From the NCBI GenBank assembly GCA_947167995.1, contig CAMVKS010000004.1:5604-69603 (forward strand): 64,000 nucleotides of DNA. Reading direction: 5' to 3'. The position numbers and the translations under genes were made by a program. How positions within the stretch are numbered: the stretch's first letter is position 1; each line of letters starts with the position of its first letter. Shown one piece after another: positions 212 to 61,087 of this stretch. The stretch comes from an uncultured Prevotellaceae bacterium (lineage in GTDB: Bacteria > Bacteroidota > Bacteroidia > Bacteroidales > Muribaculaceae). The notes under the pieces are model-generated. The model worked only from the letters and a program-made list of their open reading frames with translations. It was not told the origin of the DNA and searched no databases.

Positions 212-327
212 CCTACGGAGTCCAAGGTGTTTAATTTTTCAGCTCCATTACTCCAAGACTCCGTAGAATATATCTCCGTAGAGAGTTGTAGGTGATTAGA
301 CGTTGAAACGGAACACCACTCAAAGTC
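212..327 (-). repeat. Solo copy of the ~114-bp palindromic 'ychF-tail' repeat, inverted relative to the arrays at 25.6 and 31.1 kb
   Basis: Reverse complement reads GACTTTGAGTGGTGTTCCGTTTCAACGTCTAATCACCTACAACTCTCTACGGAGATATATTCTACGGAGTCTTGGAGTAATGGAGCTGAAAAATTAAACACCTTGGACTCCGTAGG, which aligns along its length with the array unit. Confidence 0.95.
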
Positions 328-3246: not shown

Positions 3247-3513
3247 ATTGATTGCGACTTTATTGCTATTCTCTATAATAAAGTATTTTTAAGTTTTTCT
3301 GAGACGGGGATGCTGGTGCGCTGGTGTCCTCGTCATTTTGTTTGATGGGTTCTATGGTTTTTAAGTTTAGGCATAGTTGAGGTTGTCGCACTTCAGAGCC
3401 AGCCTGCTCACCACCGGCCATTTGCTTCAAGACAAGGCAAAACATTAACGATAACTCGTGAAAGTGTCTCTTTATGGTAGCAGTTAATGATTAAACTTCA
3501 AAAAAACAGTATT

Positions 3514-3615: not shown

Positions 3616-6438
3616 CTGTTCGGGGGTCATGATCACCTCAATGCGGTTGTTGGTGTTGAGGATAGAGTTCTTCACAAAGTTGCTCACGTCGGCAGCAGTA
3701 ATGCCATTCAAAACGTCTTTGTAACCGTTGAAGCCATCATAGTTGTAGCGGTAGTACTCCCTCAAGATACCAAGCCAGTTGCCATTGCTCTTGGCATTGG
3801 TGTCGTAGTCCTTGAGCATCTTCTCCTTGATTCTCTGCATAGCGTCGGCCTCGATGTTGCCATTGGCAATCTCAGCGAGCGACTCACGCATGATACCAAG
3901 CACAAGGTCTTTCTTGTCGGGGGTCATAGCAATCGAAGCCACAACTTGTGCATGTGGATTGTCGCCCACCATCGACAACATGGCATAGCCGTTGGGAGAA
4001 TAGGCAGCACCTTCATCCTCGCGAACTTTCTTGAGCAAGATAGCCTCAAGCACTTGTCCTGCGATATCGGCCTTTATCTCATTCTCCATAGTGTAAGGAA
4101 CATTGTCGGCGTGCCACATCATTACGGCAATAGCAATAGGAGTTTCCATTGCTTTAGAGAACTCATTCACCACATTTCCTTTGGCAAATGTAGTAACATC
4201 GTTGAAGTTCTCACCCTGGCCGGCCTTGCCAGGCAGCGATGCAATATATTGCTCGATGAATGGCTTGATAGTTGCCTCGTCGAAGCTACCAACGATGTAG
4301 AATGTGAATTCACCTGCATTGGCAGTGCGCTCCTTGGCAATCTGGAGGATGCGGTCATAGTTCACATCCTTGATGTTTTCGGCCTCGAATGGACGATTTC
4401 TCCAGTTGTGGTCATAGATAGTGTAAGACACACTGTCGCCGAAGGCTGCAGTAGGCACTATGCTCTTGTTCTTGAGCTGGGTCTCGGTTGAGCTCAACAT
4501 GCTGTTTACTGCCTTCTCATCCTTGCTGATGCTTGTGAAATAGAGGTAGCCCAGTTGGAACATTGTCTCGAGGTCTTTCTTGGTAGAGCTTCCCGAGAGG
4601 TACTCATAAGAGGTGCCCAATGCTAAGCCCATGCTCACATTCTTACCGGCAAGAGCCTTCTGGAGCTCGTTGTTGCTGAAGTTCCCAAGACCACTGGCAT
4701 CAATCACATCGTCAAACATCTCGCAGTTGGCCCAGTCGGCAGGACCATAAAGCGAGCTACCACCCTTCGACTCGGCCCAGAAGCTAATCTCGTCGTCCTT
4801 GAAATCGGTGGGTTTCAGAATCACTGTTGCACCATTGCTCAGAGTGAGAGTCTTGAAGCCAAGCTGCGCGTTCGATTCCTCTTTCACAATCGAGCCAGCC
4901 TTGGGCATCTCGGTCATCAGTGGCTCATTCTTTACATTGTCGACATAGGCCTCGAGGTTTGCACTTTGGGCGGCATCGATAGCACCCTTCACTTCCTGCT
5001 CGGTAACCATTGTTATGTTCTCGGGGTTGAAATTGATAACAACAAGGTTAGAATCGTTGGCTGGCATGAGTTCGGTCATGAATTCATTGACATCGCTAAC
5101 AGAAACCTGCTGAACCAGAGCATTCATCAATTGATATCTCCATTCAATTGATGGATAAGGCTCTCCTTCAAGATAGTTGGCACAATACTGGCGACCGAAG
5201 TTGTCATTGTTGATTTGGTTGCGGTTGTTGTAGCGACGCTCAAGGCTGCTTGTATACTCGTCACGTGAACGAAGGTACTCGGTGGCGGTGAAACCATGCT
5301 TAGCAGCGCGCAGAGCCTCCTGGGTAACAGTTTGAATGGCCTCGGTGGTCTTGCCTTCCTTGGGAGCGACAAAGAGCTGGAAGCAGTCTTTTGTCTTAGC
5401 GAAGATATAGTTGCCATAGCCCGAACCAGCCGACAAGAATGGGCAATCGGGCTCTTGCGACATCTCTTCAAGACGATTGTCAAGCATGTCGCAAGCCATC
5501 TGTATTACATAGTCAACGAGCAAGTAATAAACATCACTCTTCATCTCGGTGGGGAAGGGATCGGTCTTGTACATAATCTGTACGACGTTCATCTGTTGCT
5601 CACGGTCCTTGTCGATAACAAAGATGGGCTCGTCGTTGTCGGGTACTTCGACATCAACAACCTGGGCTGCATCGGCTGCAGGAGCAGGGATTGTACCGAA
5701 CATCTCCTTAATCTTAGCCTCGGTGCGGTCTACATCGATGTCACCAACAACCACGATAGCCTGGTTGTCGGGGCGATACCACTTGTGATAGTAGTTGCGA
5801 AGCTCCTCATACTTGAAGTTGTCGATCACGCTCATCAAGCCGATGGGCATGCGCTGGCCGTACTTCGAACCAGGATAGAGCTTCTCGAGGTTGCGCTCGA
5901 ACATGCGCTGCGATGCGCTTGAACGCACGCGCCACTCCTCGTGGATAACGCCGCGCTCCTTGTCGATTTCAGCATCTTCAAGCAAGAGGCCGTTAGACCA
6001 GTCCTTGAGGATGAGCAAGCAAGAGTCGATAGCGCTCTCACGCGTGCTGGGCACATCGTTGATGTTGTAAACTGTCTGGTCCACGCTGGTGTAGGCATTC
6101 AAGTCGCGGCCAAACTCAACACCGAGCGAACGGGTGTAGTCAATCACACCGTTGCCAGGATAATTCACCGAGCCGTTGAAGGCCATGTGCTCAAGGAAGT
6201 GAGCAAGACCACGCTGACTCTCCTCCTCCTGAAGCGAACCCACTCGCTGAGCAATATAGAAGTTCACGCGGTGCTCAGGCCAGTTGTTCTGCTTGATGTA
6301 GTAAGTCAGACCATTGGGCAGCTTGCCGGTGCGAACGGTGGGGTCGTTCTGGATAGGCATAATCTGCGCCATTGAGCCAAATGCTATAAGCATCATGGCT
6401 ACTGCAAAGATTTTTCTTAGTTTCATATTGGAAAACAT
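3613..6438 (-). CDS. M16 family zinc protease (PqqL-like), secreted
   Basis: Inverted zinc motif HFLEH, ERGVIHEEWR, two M16 halves, signal peptide ending AFGSMA|Q. Confidence 0.95.
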   Translation of the reverse strand: MFSNMKLRKIFAVAMMLIAFGSMAQIMPIQNDPTVRTGKLPNGLTYYIKQNNWPEHRVNFYIAQRVGSLQEEESQRGLAHFLEHMAFNGSVNYPGNGVIDYTRSLGVEFGRDLNAYTSVDQTVYNINDVPSTRESAIDSCLLILKDWSNGLLLEDAEIDKERGVIHEEWRVRSSASQRMFERNLEKLYPGSKYGQRMPIGLMSVIDNFKYEELRNYYHKWYRPDNQAIVVVGDIDVDRTEAKIKEMFGTIPAPAADAAQVVDVEVPDNDEPIFVIDKDREQQMNVVQIMYKTDPFPTEMKSDVYYLLVDYVIQMACDMLDNRLEEMSQEPDCPFLSAGSGYGNYIFAKTKDCFQLFVAPKEGKTTEAIQTVTQEALRAAKHGFTATEYLRSRDEYTSSLERRYNNRNQINNDNFGRQYCANYLEGEPYPSIEWRYQLMNALVQQVSVSDVNEFMTELMPANDSNLVVINFNPENITMVTEQEVKGAIDAAQSANLEAYVDNVKNEPLMTEMPKAGSIVKEESNAQLGFKTLTLSNGATVILKPTDFKDDEISFWAESKGGSSLYGPADWANCEMFDDVIDASGLGNFSNNELQKALAGKNVSMGLALGTSYEYLSGSSTKKDLETMFQLGYLYFTSISKDEKAVNSMLSSTETQLKNKSIVPTAAFGDSVSYTIYDHNWRNRPFEAENIKDVNYDRILQIAKERTANAGEFTFYIVGSFDEATIKPFIEQYIASLPGKAGQGENFNDVTTFAKGNVVNEFSKAMETPIAIAVMMWHADNVPYTMENEIKADIAGQVLEAILLKKVREDEGAAYSPNGYAMLSMVGDNPHAQVVASIAMTPDKKDLVLGIMRESLAEIANGNIEADAMQRIKEKMLKDYDTNAKSNGNWLGILREYYRYNYDGFNGYKDVLNGITAADVSNFVKNSILNTNNRIEVIMTPEQ

Positions 6439-24192: not shown

Positions 24193-25665
24193 ATGAAACA
24201 CTTTCTACTCACTGCTTGGTGCTTGCTGATGTTGATGGTGGCGCCAAGTGTAAACGCGACAACTATGCACAGTAACGACAACTATAAAATCATGGTCATC
24301 AGCGACCCGCACTTGCTGTCACCTTCACTATACGACGATGGCAATGCGGCGCGGCAGCTCGACAAGAGCGATATGAAGATGGTGATTCAAAGCGATTACA
24401 TCATGCACTCGCTGATCGACGAAATCATAAAGGCTAAACCGCAACTGCTGCTCATCACAGGCGACCTCACTTTCAACGGTGAGAGGGCAAGTCATGAGCG
24501 GCTGGTCGAGCATTTGCAGCGACTTGAGCAGGCTGGGGTGCGCACCTTCGTTATCCCAGGCAACCACGACGTGATGTGCCCTTACAGTAAGCAATACAAG
24601 GGTGATGAGTCTAAGGCTGTTGCCAATGTCACTAGCGAGGATTTTGCCGCGATTTACGCTAATTATGGCTACGGCAACGACTCAAATCGTGACCCTAACT
24701 CTCTGAGTTACATTTGTGAGCCAGTTCCTGGACTGATGCTACTAGGCATCGACAGCAACATTTATGCAGCGAGTCGTGATGAAGAAGTTGTGTATCACAC
24801 CGACGGCACCGTTAAACCCGAGACTATAGAGTGGGTAAAGCAGCAGCTCGCTCAAGCCAAGCAGTCTGGTAAGCGAGTGATAGCTATGATGCACCACCAT
24901 CTGGTGGAGCACATCGATGGTGAAGCACTATTGTTGCCTAACTACATAGCATCTAACCACGACGAGGTGGCACAAGTGCTGCGTGATGGTGGAGTGAAAG
25001 TCGTTTTCACCGGTCATCTTCACATCACAGACGCAGCCACCGAGGATGGAATTACCGATGTTTCGACTGGTTCGGCGTCGACCTATCCCATTGCCATGCG
25101 TACGGCGACTTTTGACTCATCGCACGCCTCATTGAGTATCGATACTCGCATCTTTGACAGCCCCAGTAACTGTGTTCTCAGTCAGGGCCGTGCCAAGATT
25201 GAAAACAGTGCGCCAGCTTTGGCAGGCATCATCTCACGACGACTGTGGGACAAAATCAGCCCACGACTGGAACAGATGAAAGAATTGTTTGCCGAGGAAG
25301 GTGTCGATGTTTCGAAGGTGCCCAACAATGCTGTCGAGCTGTCGGCTTTGCTATTGAGACATCTGCAACAGCCTCTCACTCAAAGCCTCTTGATGGTAGA
25401 GTGCGGAGGTGAGGACCCCAACCAGGCCGCCGCTATCATCGAAGCTGTGAAACAAGGACTGCACGGCATGGTGGCCGACATCTTCCCCGACAATGCCGAC
25501 GAGATAACCGATTTCTTGATTGAGAACGCTATGCCACGAGTGGAACCAATGCTGCGCAGCGCGCTGGAAGACATCAACCAGGTGGGCACTCCACAGCAAT
25601 CCCACACCCACGACCATAGTCTAAGGATTAGACTTGTCGACCAACACCTCTCTACGGAGCTATAA
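24193..25665 (+). CDS. Secreted calcineurin-like metallophosphoesterase
   Basis: SDPH, TGDLT, PGNHD, HH and GHLH motifs; start moved to MKHFLL (signal peptide); last codons lie inside the repeat array. Confidence 0.9.
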   Translation: MKHFLLTAWCLLMLMVAPSVNATTMHSNDNYKIMVISDPHLLSPSLYDDGNAARQLDKSDMKMVIQSDYIMHSLIDEIIKAKPQLLLITGDLTFNGERASHERLVEHLQRLEQAGVRTFVIPGNHDVMCPYSKQYKGDESKAVANVTSEDFAAIYANYGYGNDSNRDPNSLSYICEPVPGLMLLGIDSNIYAASRDEEVVYHTDGTVKPETIEWVKQQLAQAKQSGKRVIAMMHHHLVEHIDGEALLLPNYIASNHDEVAQVLRDGGVKVVFTGHLHITDAATEDGITDVSTGSASTYPIAMRTATFDSSHASLSIDTRIFDSPSNCVLSQGRAKIENSAPALAGIISRRLWDKISPRLEQMKELFAEEGVDVSKVPNNAVELSALLLRHLQQPLTQSLLMVECGGEDPNQAAAIIEAVKQGLHGMVADIFPDNADEITDFLIENAMPRVEPMLRSALEDINQVGTPQQSHTHDHSLRIRLVDQHLSTEL

Positions 25666-26221
25666 TCTACGGAGTCTTGGAGTAATGGAGTTGAAAAATA
25701 AAACTCCTTGGACTCCGTAGACTTTGAGTGGTGTTCAGCTTCAACATCTAATCACCTACAACTCTCTACGGAACTATATTCTACGGAGTCTTGGAGTAAT
25801 GGAGTTGACAATAAAAACTCCTTGGACTCCGTAGACTTTGAGTGGTGTTCAGCTTCAACATCTAATCACCTACAACTCTCTACGGAACTATATTCTACGG
25901 AGTCTTGGAGTAATGGAGTTGAAAAATAAAACTCCTTGGACTCCGTAGACTTTGAGTGGTGTTCAGCTTCAACATCTAATCACCTACAACTCTCTACGGA
26001 ACTATATTCTACGGAGTCTTGGAGTAATGGAGTTGACAATAAAAACTCCTTGGACTCCGTAGACTTTGAGTGGTGTTCAGCTTCAACATCTAATCACCTA
26101 CAACTCTCTACGGAACTATATTCTACGGAGTCTTGGAGTAATGGAGTTGACAATAAAAACTCCTTGGACTCCATGACTCCGTAGACTTTGAGAGGTGAAC
26201 TCAGTAGACTTCAAATCACCT
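25644..26221 (+). repeat. Tandem array of a 114-bp palindromic unit (4 full units plus partial ends)
   Basis: TTGGACTCC recurs at 25708, 25822, 25936, 26050, 26164 (period 114); internal units differ only at GAAAAATAAAA vs GACAATAAAAA. Confidence 0.98.
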
Positions 26222-28018
26222 TAGAATAAGCTCGTAAAGCAGGGTTATATCGGCGGCCGTGAAGTATCCGTCGCCATCGACATCTATATAATAGATTTCA
26301 CCATCACTGAGAAAGTAGTCGTACATGGCAGTGAGATCGGCAGCAGTCAATACTCCATCCTTGTTGATATCGGCTCCACTACCCCACTTGCTGTCCAGCC
26401 AAGAAACCTTTTTAGATATCAAATCAAGATACTGCTGAGGCTTCTCGGGACCATGACTGCTGGCATATAAGGGCCAGCGCAGATAGTCATGAAACTCGGC
26501 TTGTGAAATCATCTCTCTCCACCGCCATGCATGCCTGATGACCTGGTCGAGAATGTGATTGTCGCAGAACTCACGCCACACAAGCCTCACCTCGTGCTGG
26601 AATCGTGGAAACTTGATTATCTCTTTTATCCACAAGAACGGATAATGCGTGCCGTAGTCATAGATGAAATGGTCGCCAGTGGTTTTGTCTTGAAAATAGC
26701 TATTGTCAAAGTCCCATACAGGGCCAAATTTCAGGGGTTCGTCGCCCAAGTCCTTATACAGATACAGGCTGCCCGAGAACGACTCCACATTCTCCAATAT
26801 CTCGTGAATGACATAGAAACGTGCCAGGGTGTGGATGTCGAGCAGACTTTCCCAGCCGCGGTCGCTCTTGTTTGACACATAGACGCAGCTGTCGGCACGA
26901 AACAGCAGGTTGTGGATGTAAGAGCGCTGAACAGACGATAACTGCTCGGGCGATTGAGCTATAAAAGTAAACAGAGGATTGGCTGGGTCATTGTTCTGGT
27001 GTTGCTCTATCACCTTCACGCCGTCATTGGCAAGCTCAAGCAGCCAGCCACCTGTCACATTCTCGGGGATGGTCTCCATGTCGGCTTGCTCCATGATGTC
27101 GACACGGCCACTCTCCACACGTATTTTCTCGCACAGGAAGTACAGTCCCTGATACTCCCCGTTGAGAACCAGCTCCACCGGCACCTCGGTTGGGGTGTAG
27201 GGCATGTTGAGCAGCCGGCTCAGGGTGAATCCTGTGGTGTTGCGCAGATAGCCGCTATAATCCTCGTTGTGTGCCAAGAGCACAAAATGCCGGCTCTTCT
27301 CAAGGCCTAAGGGAGACTGTTTAGATGCAAATTTCAGTCTATAGGGCTTTTTGTCGGAATGCAACCAAGTCCAGTGTCCACGACCTTTCACCTCAATGTC
27401 GAGAGGCTCATCCTCGCTGCCAAGCGATGAAAACCCGTCGTCAATCCACAACGTGCCGCCGATGTAATATTCTTTACTCGAGATTGTTGCCGAGTTCTGT
27501 GTGTTGAGATACACCACTGGCAGAGTGCCCGAAACGGTCACCGTGTAGCTGAAGTCGGGGCGCCAATAACCATCGCTCAGCTGTGCGTCGTTCAATGGGT
27601 AGTAAATCCATTTATCCGACTTGTTCCAGTCGATAAACATTTTCGATTTGAGACTTGTGCGTCTCAACTGTTCATCACATGCCTCGCTCAAGCTATCGAG
27701 AAACATGCTCAAGCGTGTGTAATAAGTGCCCGACGGCACATCGGCATCCACAAAGGTGAAATAACTCAATCCGTAAAGAGGGCTATCGATAGTGGCTTTC
27801 CACCAACCGCCCTTCACATCCTGAGTCATGTCGTAAACTCTGGTAAATTCATTGGTCACATTGCCCACAACCATCTTCACATGCGAGTACTTGACCTTGC
27901 TGTTGTCGAAATAATAGTCACCCTGTGCGACATCAAGCGCGAGCATGTCAAGGGTGCCCACACTCATCAGTGCAAGCATCAGCACAAGACCTACCTTTAT
28001 GTTCACAGGATGTTTCAT
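26216..28018 (-). CDS. CotH-family secreted kinase with C-terminal dockerin (copy 1)
   Basis: KGRGHWTW...KKPYRLKF, LYFLCEKI, GPVWDFDNS; terminal DINKDGVLTAADL / DVDGDGYFTAADITLLY. Confidence 0.9.
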   Translation of the reverse strand: MKHPVNIKVGLVLMLALMSVGTLDMLALDVAQGDYYFDNSKVKYSHVKMVVGNVTNEFTRVYDMTQDVKGGWWKATIDSPLYGLSYFTFVDADVPSGTYYTRLSMFLDSLSEACDEQLRRTSLKSKMFIDWNKSDKWIYYPLNDAQLSDGYWRPDFSYTVTVSGTLPVVYLNTQNSATISSKEYYIGGTLWIDDGFSSLGSEDEPLDIEVKGRGHWTWLHSDKKPYRLKFASKQSPLGLEKSRHFVLLAHNEDYSGYLRNTTGFTLSRLLNMPYTPTEVPVELVLNGEYQGLYFLCEKIRVESGRVDIMEQADMETIPENVTGGWLLELANDGVKVIEQHQNNDPANPLFTFIAQSPEQLSSVQRSYIHNLLFRADSCVYVSNKSDRGWESLLDIHTLARFYVIHEILENVESFSGSLYLYKDLGDEPLKFGPVWDFDNSYFQDKTTGDHFIYDYGTHYPFLWIKEIIKFPRFQHEVRLVWREFCDNHILDQVIRHAWRWREMISQAEFHDYLRWPLYASSHGPEKPQQYLDLISKKVSWLDSKWGSGADINKDGVLTAADLTAMYDYFLSDGEIYYIDVDGDGYFTAADITLLYELILR

Positions 28019-30002: not shown

Positions 30003-31103
30003 ATGGCACTTCAATGTGGTATCGTGGGACTTCCCAACGTGGGCAAGTCAACATTGTTCAACTGCTTGTCGAATGCTAAGGCACAATCGGCAAATTTTCC
30101 CTTCTGTACAATAGAGCCCAACGTGGGCGTAATCACCGTTCCCGACGAGCGACTTAACAAGCTTGCCGAGCTGGTTAATCCTGCCAGGGTGGTACCCACG
30201 ACAGTGGAAATTGTCGATATTGCCGGCCTGGTGAAAGGAGCAAGCCGAGGTGAGGGCCTGGGCAACAAGTTCCTTGCCAACATACGCGAGACCGATGCCA
30301 TCTTGCACGTGCTTCGTTGCTTTGACGACGACAACATCACCCACGTGGATGGTACTGTCGACCCCGTGCGCGACAAGGAAGTGATCGACACCGAGCTCCA
30401 GCTGCGCGACCTCGAGACCATTGAGAGCCGCATAGGCAAGGTGGCTAAGATGGCAGCTGCCGGAGAGCGCGATGCCAAGATGCAGCACGAGGTACTCAAG
30501 CGATATCAGGAAGTGCTGAGCCAGGGCAAGAGCGCACGCAGCGTCACCCTCGAGACTAAAGACGAGCAGAAATTTGCCCACGACTTGTTCCTGTTGACCA
30601 ACAAGCCAGTGCTCTACGTGTGCAACGTCGACGATGCCAGTGCCGTAACTGGCAACAAATATGTGGATGCAGTGCGTGAAGCCGTCAAGGAAGAGAATGC
30701 CGAGATTCTCGTTGTGGCAGCGCAGACCGAGAGCGACATCGCCGAGCTCGAGACCTATGAGGAGCGACAGATGTTCCTCGAGGAAATAGGACTGAAGGAG
30801 AGCGGTGTGAACCGATTGATCAAGGCTGCCTACAAGCTGCTCGACCTTGAGACGTTCCTCACCGCTGGACCCAAAGAGGTGCGCGCCTGGACTTTCCGCA
30901 AGGGCAGCAAGGCACCACAGTGCGCCGGCGTGATTCACACCGACTTCGAGCGTGGCTTCATTCGTGCCGAAATCATAAAATATGAGGACTACATCCACTA
31001 TGGCAGCGAGGCGGCAGTGAAAGAGGCTGGCAAAATGCACATCGAGGGCAAAGACTACGTGTTCCAGGACGGCGACATCGTGGTGTTCCGCTTCAACGTC
31101 TAA
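30003..31103 (+). CDS. ychF: Redox-regulated ribosome-binding ATPase YchF
   Basis: GIVGLPNVGKSTLFN, NFPFCTIEPN, DIAGLV, GLGNKFL, C-terminal TGS domain ending DGDIVVFRFNV. Confidence 0.99.
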   Translation: MALQCGIVGLPNVGKSTLFNCLSNAKAQSANFPFCTIEPNVGVITVPDERLNKLAELVNPARVVPTTVEIVDIAGLVKGASRGEGLGNKFLANIRETDAILHVLRCFDDDNITHVDGTVDPVRDKEVIDTELQLRDLETIESRIGKVAKMAAAGERDAKMQHEVLKRYQEVLSQGKSARSVTLETKDEQKFAHDLFLLTNKPVLYVCNVDDASAVTGNKYVDAVREAVKEENAEILVVAAQTESDIAELETYEERQMFLEEIGLKESGVNRLIKAAYKLLDLETFLTAGPKEVRAWTFRKGSKAPQCAGVIHTDFERGFIRAEIIKYEDYIHYGSEAAVKEAGKMHIEGKDYVFQDGDIVVFRFNV

Positions 31104-31347
31104 TCACCTGCACATCTCTACGGAGATAAACTCTACGGAGTCTTGGAGTAATGGAGTTGAAAAATAAAAACTCCTTGGACTCCGTAGGCTTTGAATGGTA
31201 TTCCGCTTCAACGTCTAATTACCTACACCTCTCTACGGAGATTTATTCTACGGAGTCTTGGAGTAATGGAGTTGAAAAACAAAAACTCCTTGGACTCCAT
31301 GACTCCGTAGACTTTAAGCAGTGAACTCCGTAGACTTTAAATCACCT
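31080..31347 (+). repeat. Two-unit array of the same repeat, starting inside the ychF 3' end
   Basis: ychF tail at 31080 and a second tail ATGGTATTCCGCTTCAACGTCTAA at 31195; same CTACGGAGTC/GACTCCGTAG hairpins; ends at the CotH-2 stop codon. Confidence 0.97.
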
Positions 31348-33117
31348 TAGAATAAGGTTGTAAAGGGCGGTGATATCGGCGGCAGTAATTTCTCCGTCGC
31401 TGGTTATATCGCTTGTACTTAGGAAAGTATCATTACCATTAAGTAAATAATCGTAGAGGGTGGTGATGTCGGCAGCAGTGACGATTCCGTCGCAGTTCAC
31501 ATCGCCATTTGCTACGCTCCACTGCTCGTTGAGCCAGTTGTATTTGCTTTGAAAATAGCTCTTGAAGAGGTCACGGTCATAGTAAAGTTCGGCATTACCA
31601 TAATCGGGCCACCTTAATGCATCAAAAATTGCCGCTTGGTAAATCTTATTAATAAAACTGTCAATAAAGCTATCTGTCATCTCCTTGTAATGTAGCGAGA
31701 CATATCGCCGCCAATGTTTCTTAACTATCTGCTGGAAATGCGGAAATTTTGCAATCTCGCCAATCCATGTCTGCGTGGTCATAGGCTCCTCGTAAATAAA
31801 CTTGTCGGTGATGCCACGACAGAAAGCGTTGCCGAAATCCCACACTGGCCCGAACAAAATCTTCGAGCTTTCTCCTTTTTCCTTATGCCAGAAGCAGCTG
31901 CCATGGAACGACTCGGTGTCGTCGAGCAACTCCTGTACGATATAGAAGCAAGCCAATGTATCGGGGTCGATATATGTCTCCCAACTGTTGTCGGTCTTGT
32001 CGGTGACATAGATTGCTGAATCTACAATATTTATTAAGTCTAGGAGATATTCTCGCTGGGGGTAGCTCAGGTGTTCGGGTGACTTGTAGGTCAAGTTAAT
32101 CGCCTGTCCGTTGCTCTCAACGGTTTGAATCTGCTCCTCTTCATAGTAATTGTCAATCTCAACCAGCCAGCCACCAGTAATCTTGAGACTGTCGGTCTCA
32201 TAATCGGCCTGCTCCGTCACATTTACGCGGTTGGGTTCTACACGCACCGTTTCGGTTAGCATATAAAGCCCAATATAGTCGCCATTGAGCACCACCTCTA
32301 CTGGTCGCTGCGACGGTGTCCACGCAAGCCCCAACTGCCTGCTCAACTCATATCCCACAGCGTGACGCAGAAAACCCAGATAGTCATCGGCATTGGCAAT
32401 CAATGCCCAATGCTTATTGCGTTTCATGCCCAGCAGTGCTGTTTTCTTGTCGAGCTTGATGCGGTAAGGCTTCTTGTCGTAGTATTCCCATGTATAGTTT
32501 CCGCGCCCTCTAATCTGCATCAGATTTGGAGCATCGGCAGCCCCCACATTGTCAATGCCCTCGATGCCCATGTTGTCAATATAATAATAGGCATAAATGT
32601 ATTCATCTTTTGATGTTATGGGCATAGAATCCTCGGTGTTGATGAACATCACAGGCAAAGTCCCAGAGTAGGATATTGGCTGACCGAGCATCAACCAGAT
32701 TCCCGATGTCCAATTATTTCCACCAGTTGGTGTGAACACCCACCCTACCGGGATAGGGATGTTGAAAGTCGTGGTGTGCTTTCCGTTTAGCGAGATGATT
32801 CTGGTAATCATGCTCGAAGGATCCTCGTTATAAAACCCATCGGGTAACGAAGTCTCGACAAAGCAATAGCAGTGCATTCCTGTCACAGTCTCGGGGATTG
32901 TGATACTCCAAAGACTGTCCTCCTCATTTGTCATTGTCACCACATAGATCTCGGAATTAGAATAGTTGCCATAGACAAACTTCACAACGGAGTAATTTGT
33001 CAGCGAATTGTTGAAATAAAACTTACCTTTGGGAATGTTGAGCGCACTAACAGTAAAACCAGCCAATGCCACCAATAACACACAGAAGAATATAATCAGT
33101 TTTTTCATCACAATCAT
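31342..33117 (-). CDS. CotH-family secreted kinase with C-terminal dockerin (copy 2)
   Basis: RGRGNYTW...KKPYRIKL, LYMLTETV, GPVWDFGNA; terminal GDVNCDGIVTAADITTLY / DITSDGEITAADITALY. Confidence 0.9.
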   Translation of the reverse strand: MIVMKKLIIFFCVLLVALAGFTVSALNIPKGKFYFNNSLTNYSVVKFVYGNYSNSEIYVVTMTNEEDSLWSITIPETVTGMHCYCFVETSLPDGFYNEDPSSMITRIISLNGKHTTTFNIPIPVGWVFTPTGGNNWTSGIWLMLGQPISYSGTLPVMFINTEDSMPITSKDEYIYAYYYIDNMGIEGIDNVGAADAPNLMQIRGRGNYTWEYYDKKPYRIKLDKKTALLGMKRNKHWALIANADDYLGFLRHAVGYELSRQLGLAWTPSQRPVEVVLNGDYIGLYMLTETVRVEPNRVNVTEQADYETDSLKITGGWLVEIDNYYEEEQIQTVESNGQAINLTYKSPEHLSYPQREYLLDLINIVDSAIYVTDKTDNSWETYIDPDTLACFYIVQELLDDTESFHGSCFWHKEKGESSKILFGPVWDFGNAFCRGITDKFIYEEPMTTQTWIGEIAKFPHFQQIVKKHWRRYVSLHYKEMTDSFIDSFINKIYQAAIFDALRWPDYGNAELYYDRDLFKSYFQSKYNWLNEQWSVANGDVNCDGIVTAADITTLYDYLLNGNDTFLSTSDITSDGEITAADITALYNLILR

Positions 33118-60436: not shown

Positions 60437-61087
60437 TCATTGCACTTTAAAAGTTACAGGAATAGTGTACCATACGTCAACTAGCTCGCCCGTGTCATTA
60501 CTACCAGGAGAGAACGGTGGATAACCTTTGTCGTTTAAAGACTTTATCATTTTAATAGCTTCTTCATCCATGTCTTGGCCAAGACTTCTAGCTACTTTTA
60601 TTTCGCCAATATATCCGTCTTTCTTCACCACAAATTGCAAGATGACTTTACCATGTGAGCAGGTTTCTGGTGGATAACGAAGATGACTATTAATGTAATT
60701 AAAAAGTGCTGAATCGCCATCTATGTATGATGGCATGTGAGCTGCCGATTTAAAAACGCCAGAATTATCATTGGCTTTGGTCGTTTCTACTGGCTTGATG
60801 TGATAAGTTGTTGTTTTTGTATTATTTTTAAAATCTTCAACAACTGTTTTATCGTGATAAGTTGTCGTTCTTGTATTGTTTCTTAAATCAACAACAATCG
60901 TTTTATTTTGATCCATATATACACTACCGTGACCACCACATCCTTGCATGAACCAGCCACTTGGCCGATTAAATATATGACCTAGAACAGAATCGCTTAA
61001 AACATAGTTTGGCACCGTGTCTTGTGCAAAGACCGATACAATTGCCACAAAGGCTGTCACAATTGATATTATAGTTTTCTTTACCAT
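60437..61087 (-). CDS. TonB C-terminal domain protein with signal peptide
   Basis: LRYPP...GKVILQFVVKKDG...DEEAIKMI...VWYTIPVTF; start moved to MVKKT (-7 box at 61115-61122). Confidence 0.85.
   Translation of the reverse strand: MVKKTIISIVTAFVAIVSVFAQDTVPNYVLSDSVLGHIFNRPSGWFMQGCGGHGSVYMDQNKTIVVDLRNNTRTTTYHDKTVVEDFKNNTKTTTYHIKPVETTKANDNSGVFKSAAHMPSYIDGDSALFNYINSHLRYPPETCSHGKVILQFVVKKDGYIGEIKVARSLGQDMDEEAIKMIKSLNDKGYPPFSPGSNDTGELVDVWYTIPVTFKVQ

Follow-up and report, generated by a model that had tools for sequence, protein, structure and literature searches.

Small non-coding palindromic repeats with inverted ends, such as the Correia elements and the Rickettsia palindromic elements among miniature inverted-repeat transposable elements (MITEs) and foldback repeats, remodel the 3' ends of genes. 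Repetitive extragenic palindromic (REP) elements are palindromes of 20-40 bp, one end of which bears a GTAG (or CGTC) tag that stays unpaired (PMC3733652), and the GIY-YIG nuclease Ssn cuts its NTS/SRM hairpin repeat in single-stranded form (PMC11893778). Here we describe a hairpin family represented by a tandem array with a 114-nt period (array 1) in a stretch of 64,000 nt, hereafter the window, from contig CAMVKS010000004.1 of an uncultured Prevotellaceae bacterium. Array 1 probably consists of stacked hairpin modules that lack the gene (orphans) and belong to a GxxExxY nuclease-hairpin element, in whose full copies the hairpin would be a cis element framing a 129-aa GxxExxY (PF13366) gene. 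Our analysis points to a partnership between repeat and nuclease for which we found no description in print.

The element resembles REP, bacterial interspersed mosaic element (BIME) and REPIN repeats and their REP-associated tyrosine transposases (RAYTs; PMC3116915, PMC3337134, PMC3733652) in that short extragenic palindromes lie 3' of genes, often clustered and mostly between unidirectional or convergent open reading frames (ORFs), and in that these repeats also frame one dedicated enzyme gene, with gene-less copies in large excess over it. It differs in its enzyme, predicted to be a PD-(D/E)XK Cas4-like nuclease and not an HUH Y1 transposase; in its hairpins of 54-62 nt, whose arms are three phased 5-nt units with free spacers and whose GTAG is paired; and in its low copy number and its head-to-tail arrays, which drag flanking sequence along. 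As in the Ssn-NTS/SRM system (PMC11893778), a small stand-alone nuclease gene is flanked on one or both sides by a hairpin repeat scattered over the genome; however, the predicted nuclease is PD-(D/E)XK and not GIY-YIG, the repeat architecture differs, many repeat-bearing genomes lack the gene, and the link between nuclease and repeat is drawn here from sequence comparison. Because enzyme fold and repeat architecture both differ, the GxxExxY hairpin element is a member of neither REP/RAYT nor Ssn/NTS. With MITEs and foldback repeats it shares inverted ends and the supply of stop codons, here to a phosphoesterase gene and CotH genes, but it has no transposase partner and no consistent target-site duplication, and its head-to-tail arrays are common.

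The genome under study (G000) is a draft short-read metagenome-assembled genome (MAG) of 2.9 Mb in 121 contigs, 96% complete; G-numbers denote species genomes, C-numbers contigs and L-numbers loci or assemblies. The hairpin carries three GGAGT units in 8-nt phase on its 5' arm and three ACTCC units on its 3' arm and is closed by CTAC...GTAG, which pair with each other as parts of the invariant feet CTACGGAGT/ACTCCGTAG. In both arms of the 57 distinct hairpins compared, the GGAG starts fall at offsets 4, 12 (13) and 20-22, and feet and units are paired in 93-99% of cases, whereas the 3-nt spacers are paired in 45%, against 43% with shuffled partners. Thus, the phased units are conserved and not a continuous helix. 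The loops are free, some holding a GC-rich mini-hairpin, and the sequence 3' of the hairpins is ACTTTGAG or AATATAG.

Clustering of the genes next to hairpins yielded an ORF of ~128 aa as the outstanding family, tightly bracketed by hairpins in four MAGs (L050, L103, L109 and L133) and matching PDDEXK_3 (PF13366, 4e-37) and GxxExxY (TIGR04256, 1e-38). GxxExxY genes filled seven neighbour slots in these four loci, against a rough expectation of 0.14 (~5 such genes per ~2500 genes, 70 neighbour slots). In an unbiased protein search of the genus, covered by 121 species with one representative each, the cognate subfamily (at least 74% identity) occurred in three species, G057 (L103), G020 and G078, and was hairpin-framed in all three. 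G057 shows the order ychF-H-gene-H-CotH, where H is a hairpin and ychF the gene of the ribosome-binding ATPase, at the site orthologous to that in the window. In G020 and G078 the gene sits inside the loop (5' arm-gene-3' arm), tandem gene-less hairpins or half-arms adjoin it, and the loops keep gene-proximal sequences. Solo hairpins on C35 and C68 of G000 likewise retain 16-24 nt of gene-proximal spacer.

The same gene is polymorphic among close relatives. Ten conspecific assemblies were retrieved by exact YchF protein (100% identical), and their flanking DNA is ~98-98.6% identical to that of G000. Exact-protein look-ups with CotH1, the phosphoesterase and the citrate transporter gave no matches, and a look-up with peptidase C69 gave a single contig that ends short of array 1. 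Across the conspecific assemblies, the spacer between ychF and CotH2, a convergent gene for a CotH kinase with dockerin, contains one, two or three units; the gene is present there in five of the ten. With E for a copy of the ychF end and Lo for an outer-left repeat, it reads E-Lo-H-tail in L181 and L182; E-Lo-H-tail-E'-Lo-H-tail in L176, L180 and G000; E-Lo-H-gene-H-tail-E''-Lo-H-tail, the gene being that of the 129-aa PDDEXK_3 protein, in L179 and L184; and E-Lo-H-tail-E'-Lo-H-gene-H-tail-E''-Lo-H-tail in L175, L177, L178 and L187. All these haplotypes can be related by single H-to-H recombination events, as deletions from the longest form or the reverse. Strains that are ~98% identical therefore differ in nuclease gene presence and hairpin copy number at one defined site. 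Array 1 varies as well, with three units in L187 and five in G000. Like a bacterial minisatellite or variable-number tandem repeat, the element thus forms head-to-tail repeats of strain-variable copy number (three versus five, and one to three at the ychF spacer), but its unit holds a dispersed, sequence-conserved hairpin and has also been copied to unlinked sites. CotH2 itself is dimorphic within the species, ending in ...LYNLILR* or in the G015-like ...LYDILFR* (587-588 versus 591 aa; L175, L181 and L182 versus G000, L176 and L179), which makes the region a recombination hot spot outside the repeats as well.

The origin of the 114-nt period can be read at the ychF locus of the window. The ychF gene (30003-31103, + strand; Pfam YchF-GTPase_C), the last 24 nt of which are the source of the E-tag and the C-terminus of which is conserved in relatives, runs into array 2 (31081-31341, +). 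This array has two units in the order native ychF end-Lo-hairpin-tail-E'-Lo-hairpin-tail-outer-right repeat, with a short hairpin at 31133-31187, E' at 31195-31218 and a full hairpin at 31248-31310; Tandem Repeats Finder reports 31081-31298 (period 115, 1.9 copies), with its start inside the real ychF end. CotH2 (31342-33117, -; Pfam) follows, convergent with ychF. The 60-nt segments between hairpins hold GTGGTGTTC(A/C)GCTTCAAC(A/G)TCTAA, a copy of the final 24 nt of ychF with the stop codon. All relatives examined, also those in which no hairpin lies downstream (G014, G006, G001, G020 and G005), have ...VVFRFNV* as the native C-terminus of YchF. In the closest species, G015, whose YchF is 99% identical, a single full nested element stands unduplicated between ychF and CotH2. 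The element tail reads TTTGAGTGGTGAACTCC, ychF reads ATCGTGGTGTTCCGC and the junction of the array units reads TTTGA(G/A)TGGT(G/A)TTC(C/A)GC, which places the crossover within the common GTGGTG. The repeat unit, ychF end (E)-Lo-hairpin (H)-tail, appears from these junctions to be the product of a microhomology-mediated tandem duplication; the 24 nt of ychF that every unit brings with it, a passive tag, account for the period of 114 nt. Since E is present in array 1 and in a solo copy described below, the units there descend from the ychF locus. A derived CCTACAAC is common to array 1 and the solo copy, and TTCAGC is common to array 1 and an E copy of conspecific strains.

Array 1 lies in the spacer between a metallophosphoesterase gene (24193-25665, +; Pfam Metallophos, its translation starting with a signal peptide at 24193) and CotH1, a convergent gene for a CotH kinase with dockerin (26216-28018, -; Pfam). 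Tandem Repeats Finder places it at 25640-26172 (period 114, 4.7 copies, 96% matches), and reading of the sequence gives five hairpins at the 114-nt period in 25640-26221. The preliminary description, made from the window's sequence, had reported a 114-bp tandem array between convergent genes without variable spacers, with an outer stem CTACGGAGTC/GACTCCGTAG, an inner stem GGAGTT/AACTCC and GGAGT/ACTCC sub-repeats; all of this is borne out, the phase of the sub-repeats being 8 nt. Its count of four near-identical units gives way to five hairpins, of which the four internal ones are 8-nt deletion forms. Hairpins 1 to 4 are in the short form of 54 nt (25667-25720, 25781-25834, 25895-25948 and 26009-26062, all +, the fourth identical to the second), and hairpin 5 (26123-26184, +) is in the full form of 62 nt with three paired GGAGT/ACTCC units. 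The 8 nt missing from the 3' arm of the short forms correspond to a deletion between GACTCC direct repeats, and the full 3' arm, AACTCC-TTGG-ACTCC-ATG-ACTCCGTAG, is confined to the last unit of each array. Before every hairpin stands a copy of Lo, CTCTACGGAG (the first at 25650-25659, +), recognised by sequence, by alignment and as an outer stem in the fold. Four E copies are present: E-tag 1, GTGGTGTTCAGCTTCAACATCTAA (25728-25751, +), which aligns with the native ychF end including its stop codon, and further copies at 25842-25865, 25956-25979 and 26070-26093 (+). The first unit has no E and adjoins the phosphoesterase gene, to which this first element copy supplies the last six codons and the stop codon. 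Hairpin 5 is followed at 26185-26219 (+) by the tail ACTTTGAGAGGTG, the outer-right repeat AACTCAGTAGAC and an AATCACC motif holding the stop codon of CotH1; at the element borders generally, the motif AATCACC(T) holds the stop codons of CotH1, CotH2 and ychF.

The terminal full unit is enclosed by a further stem, TCTACGGAG/CTCCGTAGA, and folds with a free energy of -45 to -54 kcal/mol (z -6 to -9), while an internal unit reaches a z of only -2.8; on both strands the folds are very stable. A 27-nt arm, CTACGGAGTCTTGGAGTAATGGAGTTG, occurs eight times in the window and never in 100 shuffles, with five copies in array 1, two in array 2 and one at 240-266 (-). This last copy belongs to the solo unit (213-326, -), which alignment resolves as tail-E-tag-Lo-short hairpin of exactly 114 nt. 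It runs from just after one hairpin foot (GTAG, then ACTTTGAG) to the next foot (...CCGTAG), and it was found with the same flanks in four independent ruminant samples. E-tagged units thus occupy three loci, the ychF spacer, array 1 and the solo site, and the tag shows that hairpin units have been copied from the ychF locus to the two other sites. A similar case exists in G127, where a unit of the L092 array with a distinctive 40-nt spacer recurs at C18:8430-8561 as 1.15 periods with different flanks. No decayed hairpin was recognised beside the solo unit, the neighbouring alignment being no better than shuffles, and its insertion into a resident hairpin accordingly has no support. No direct target duplication was seen at the solo unit, which is a single case. 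Its flanks (190-212 and 327-335) hold a 6-nt inverted repeat, its ATTGTG half directly abutting one junction and its CACAAT half standing 5 nt off the other. In an empty-site comparison with seven relatives, the phosphoesterase gene and CotH1 were not syntenic in any, and the solo flanks were not conserved.

The two CotH loci also appear to have exchanged sequence. CotH1 and CotH2 are 37% identical as proteins, whereas their spacers and the last ~58 nt of the genes are 87-90% identical in DNA; a simple recent segmental duplication of CotH gene and spacer is thereby excluded. Ectopic exchange seems to have taken place between the two element copies resident there, 5 kb from each other, over a tract that extends into the dockerin-coding 3' ends. 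Elements just 3' of dockerin genes are seen in the window at 26216-26274 and 31342-31400, in L092 at ~595-800 and at C45:13790-13870 of G000, and six proteins neighbouring hairpins cluster through their dockerin domain. In G014 (C24; L047 ~2570-2660), a glycosyltransferase gene stands directly 3' of ychF and both CotH2 and the hairpin element are absent; the CotH2 gene and the element are therefore an insertion or deletion relative to G014. The ychF-CotH spacers of G006 (C152; L048 ~3320-3440) and G001 (C38; L049 ~3960-4070) hold a different phased repeat with TCTAGAA units, e.g. TTTCTAGAAAATCTAGAACTTTTAGAAAATCTAGAAC. Viewed across species, the ychF-CotH spacer suggests a recurrent landing place for phased-unit repeats.

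The family is not confined to the window, a point on which the preliminary description had made its proposal depend: further copies lie on other contigs of the genome, C35, C45 (two), C68, C96 (two) and C118, two of them at contig ends, and complete hairpins occur in 11 of the 121 species. Copy number in G000 is low, at about 10 loci. Hairpin counts were 25 in G127, 13 in G000 including nested matches and 5 in G010, against 0-1 with a reversed-pattern control. A dispersed-repeat scan of one genome per GTDB species with the pattern CTACGGAGTNNNGGAGN{3,5}GGAGT returned more than 113 stretches, and among the matches listed most belong to MAGs of rumen Bacteroidales or Muribaculaceae. Every one of the 35 hairpin clusters is downstream of one gene or more (++ 10, +- 9, -- 5), and no clear case of a divergent (-+) spacer was seen. 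L092 (~115 nt), L077 (~81 nt), L142, L146, L109 and G078 also hold head-to-tail arrays, with other periods and with spacers particular to each array. Two identical variant hairpins (CTACGGAGTTATGGAGTAATGGAGTA...) were observed at C96:599-656 and 2537-2594 of G000 in a duplicated segment of ~2 kb, each followed by a T-run on the opposite strand and terminator-like.

The 129-aa protein belongs, according to an AlphaFold2 model (predicted local distance difference test score 92.9), to the PD-(D/E)XK superfamily, with a Cas4/RecB-like fold. In a Foldseek comparison with the PDB, the top match was 4ic1 SSO0001 (E 3e-4, template-modelling score 0.51-0.57), the Sulfolobus Cas4, followed by lambda exonuclease, the Cas4-family protein ACE1 and RecE; by sequence, the protein had no match in the PDB. 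In an alignment of the cognate subfamily with the paralogues of G000, residues G23, E26, Y29, D66, E76 and K78, which make up the GxxExxY motif and the D...ExK catalytic core, are invariant. The nuclease thus looks active, as far as alignment and model can tell. PF13366 is a very large prokaryotic protein family; a superfamily survey of 2012 gave its function as unknown (PMC3424549). Our literature search met GxxExxY or PF13366 in incidental mentions only, with no paper found tying the family to repeats, and no paper was found that combines Muribaculaceae with REP elements. Five other GxxExxY paralogues of G000 are each placed between their own, different phased-unit repeats (C102:5091-5426 = C59:15617-15952; C61:8391-8687; C20:37828-38142; C10:41007-41315; two at contig ends), namely CATAAGAA units in tandem at C102/C59, GACATAMA at C20 and AAATT-rich sequence at C61.

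These results can be combined in the following scheme. A tandem duplication at the ychF locus would have joined GTGGTG in the last ychF codons to GTGGTG in the element tail; tagged units would then have been copied to the phosphoesterase-CotH1 spacer and amplified there to three to five copies, depending on the strain, and one tagged unit would have been copied as a single clean period, in inverted orientation, to a site 31 kb away. The hairpins may act as break or recombination hot spots. When present, the nuclease would probably recognise them by their phased units and cleave at the foot or close to it, and unequal or ectopic recombination together with template switching in repair would duplicate, delete and copy units and let the gene between hairpins be gained or lost. 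The genome under study would have lost the cognate gene or never received it. A likely by-product at the level of the host is stable RNA hairpins in the 3' ends of both convergent transcripts. Binding or cutting of the hairpins by the nuclease, and cutting as the driver of the rearrangements, are inferred.

Several points weigh against this scheme. RecA recombination, slippage or template switching between repeats would account for every rearrangement seen, with no need of a dedicated enzyme. No cutting, binding or excision product was observed. All copy numbers come from short-read assemblies. The four loci that gave seven GxxExxY neighbours were found through their hairpins and carry an ascertainment bias. 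No empty site was recovered for the solo unit, which was present in 4 of 4 samples examined. The cognate gene is found in 3 of 121 species, against hairpins in 11 of 121, and among these 11 representatives G057 is its sole carrier; G127, with 25 hairpins, has none. In G000 (96% complete) the gene is absent, the best paralogue being 37% identical, so that the preliminary observation that no cognate enzyme lies in the window extends to the whole genome. Hairpin species are mostly without the gene, and hairpins therefore persist and form arrays without it. Because RecA recombination or slippage suffices and most hairpin species lack the gene, the step in which the nuclease drives the rearrangements is held as tentative, at somewhat under even chances. 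With its 129-aa protein and 62-nt hairpin, the locus offers a small experimental system for asking whether a minimal Cas4-like nuclease recognises phased repeats in the way that Ssn recognises NTS repeats, and a site-specific, structure-specific nuclease of this size could serve as a tool. For genome annotation, the arrays matter in that they give neighbouring genes their stop codons and 3' ends and break short-read assemblies.

In a stronger form of the idea, which we consider unlikely, GxxExxY genes and phased-unit hairpins would constitute a self-propagating repeat-nuclease element of an undescribed kind. The nuclease would recognise the three GGAGT units and cleave directly after GTAG, at the foot of the hairpin, releasing or templating whole units that would be re-inserted head-to-tail, in arrays dragging flanking DNA along, or at new sites. 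The ychF-tagged solo unit would then be a natural record of one copy-out event, and the presence or absence of the gene among ~98% identical strains would show the element moving in real time.

Four other accounts of array 1 involve no nuclease partner, and a fifth denies the array altogether. As a host RNA element, the hairpins would be bidirectional transcription stops or 3'-end stabilisers that serve convergent genes and were amplified by replication slippage, with GxxExxY genes as incidental neighbours. Such a role agrees with the position of 35 of 35 clusters downstream of a gene, without a clear -+ case, with the stable folds of both strands and with reports that REPs act in this way (PMC3733652); moreover, among metatranscriptome contigs, X28 matches 25547-25745 with 100% identity, leading out of the phosphoesterase gene and across the first hairpin, and X24 (668 nt) spans the whole spacer between the ends of the phosphoesterase gene and CotH1, with the array collapsed. 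However, the RNA evidence is of low depth and DNA carry-over is possible, as it is for X25, a loose end that joins the 3' end of a GxxExxY gene to a hairpin. A terminator scan of 25400-26500 gave 0 sites on both strands and no U-tract follows the hairpins, so an intrinsic terminator, which combines a GC-rich hairpin with a U-tract, was rejected. No Rfam family matched: Rfam 15 gave no match at the gathering score in the window, and the lone match at E<=1 was a chance microRNA model (19.8 versus 93 bits). Structure alone leaves unexplained the phased conserved units with non-complementary spacers, and a host RNA element leaves unexplained the patchy distribution in 11 of 121 species, the framing of one nuclease subfamily and the copied ychF-tagged units; we regard this account as improbable. 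That a single hairpin was mis-assembled into an array is conceivable for a short-read draft in 121 contigs, given that units 2 and 4 are identical, that the repeat path is not unique and that contigs break at other copies, e.g. C35 and C118. Yet a SPAdes assembly made independently from a different sample shows this array too, with three units and unit-specific single-nucleotide polymorphisms, at least five independent assemblies have multi-unit arrays at the ychF spacer, and the unit variants need at least five units for a path using all observed junctions. In Logan contigs the array is collapsed; nonetheless, tail/E-tag junction k-mers were found there in several samples. When the tail/E-tag junction pattern was searched for in metagenomes, the one match, a chance one, came from an unrelated GC-rich organism. 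An assembly artefact is, on this evidence, scarcely credible.

The accounts based on known mobile elements meet their difficulties at the borders and in the enzyme. A conventional MITE, a non-autonomous element with terminal inverted repeats that depends on a transposase elsewhere and forms arrays by repeated insertion, would fit the nested element with inverted ends TCTACGGAG ... CTCCGTAGA, the dispersed and patchy family, and, as possible target-site duplications, the nearly identical direct repeats AACACCT/AATCACCT on either side of arrays 1 and 2. But AATCACCT also lies inside every unit, so that it is no usable mark of a target duplication; such a duplication is missing at the solo unit, which ends in a different phase, from hairpin foot to hairpin foot; and the neighbours that recur are GxxExxY and dockerin proteins only, with no transposase gene among them. 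We hold a MITE to be very unlikely. The preliminary description had favoured a REP/BIME-like element mobilised by a RAYT (HUH Y1 transposase) or an attC-like site. The first proposal stands in so far as there is a dispersed family of extragenic palindromes with a dedicated enzyme gene; GTAG at one end, BIME-like clustering and a 154-aa Y1_Tnp protein encoded in the genome also speak for it. Membership of the RAYT/REP system does not stand: none of the three PF01797 matches (C14, C44 and C20) is within 5 kb of a unit, of the 35 clusters of hairpins in other genomes none has a Y1 gene as neighbour, the stem contains the GTAG in paired form, unlike the unpaired REP tag (PMC3733652), and the RAYT on C14 is flanked by unrelated GC-rich inverted repeats. 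The gene associated with the unit is that of the 129-aa GxxExxY/PDDEXK_3 nuclease and not a RAYT, an IS200-family TnpA or a tyrosine recombinase, which makes RAYT mobilisation a highly improbable explanation. An attC-like array of integron recombination sites recommends itself by imperfect palindromes of 54-62 nt with internal bulges and by the small ORF between two hairpins, cassette-like, in some genomes. We found no integron integrase, the best match to TIGR02249 scoring 78.7 bits against a cut-off of 265 and the matches being generic Xer-like recombinases; R/L boxes (GTTRRRY) are absent, the feet being CTACGGAGT/ACTCCGTAG; the arrays have no ORFs between sites and the 'cassette' gene is of a single kind. 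This proposal is the least probable of all.

Two observations concern repeats outside the GxxExxY hairpin family. At C14:59400-60349 of G000 (L001 1200-2139), the 154-aa RAYT/IS200-like gene is framed by GC-rich REP-like hairpins (GGGGCGAAATGACTA..., CCACGCACCCCT...), which occur only at their own locus and, in part, at C61:13511-13555; a tandem repeat of the CACCCATCT type then follows at the contig end. In the window, 60800-60906 is a 54-bp tandem repeat of two copies (GTGATAAGTTGTCGTTCTTGTATT...AACAACAAC...) and is AT-rich (GC 0.36).

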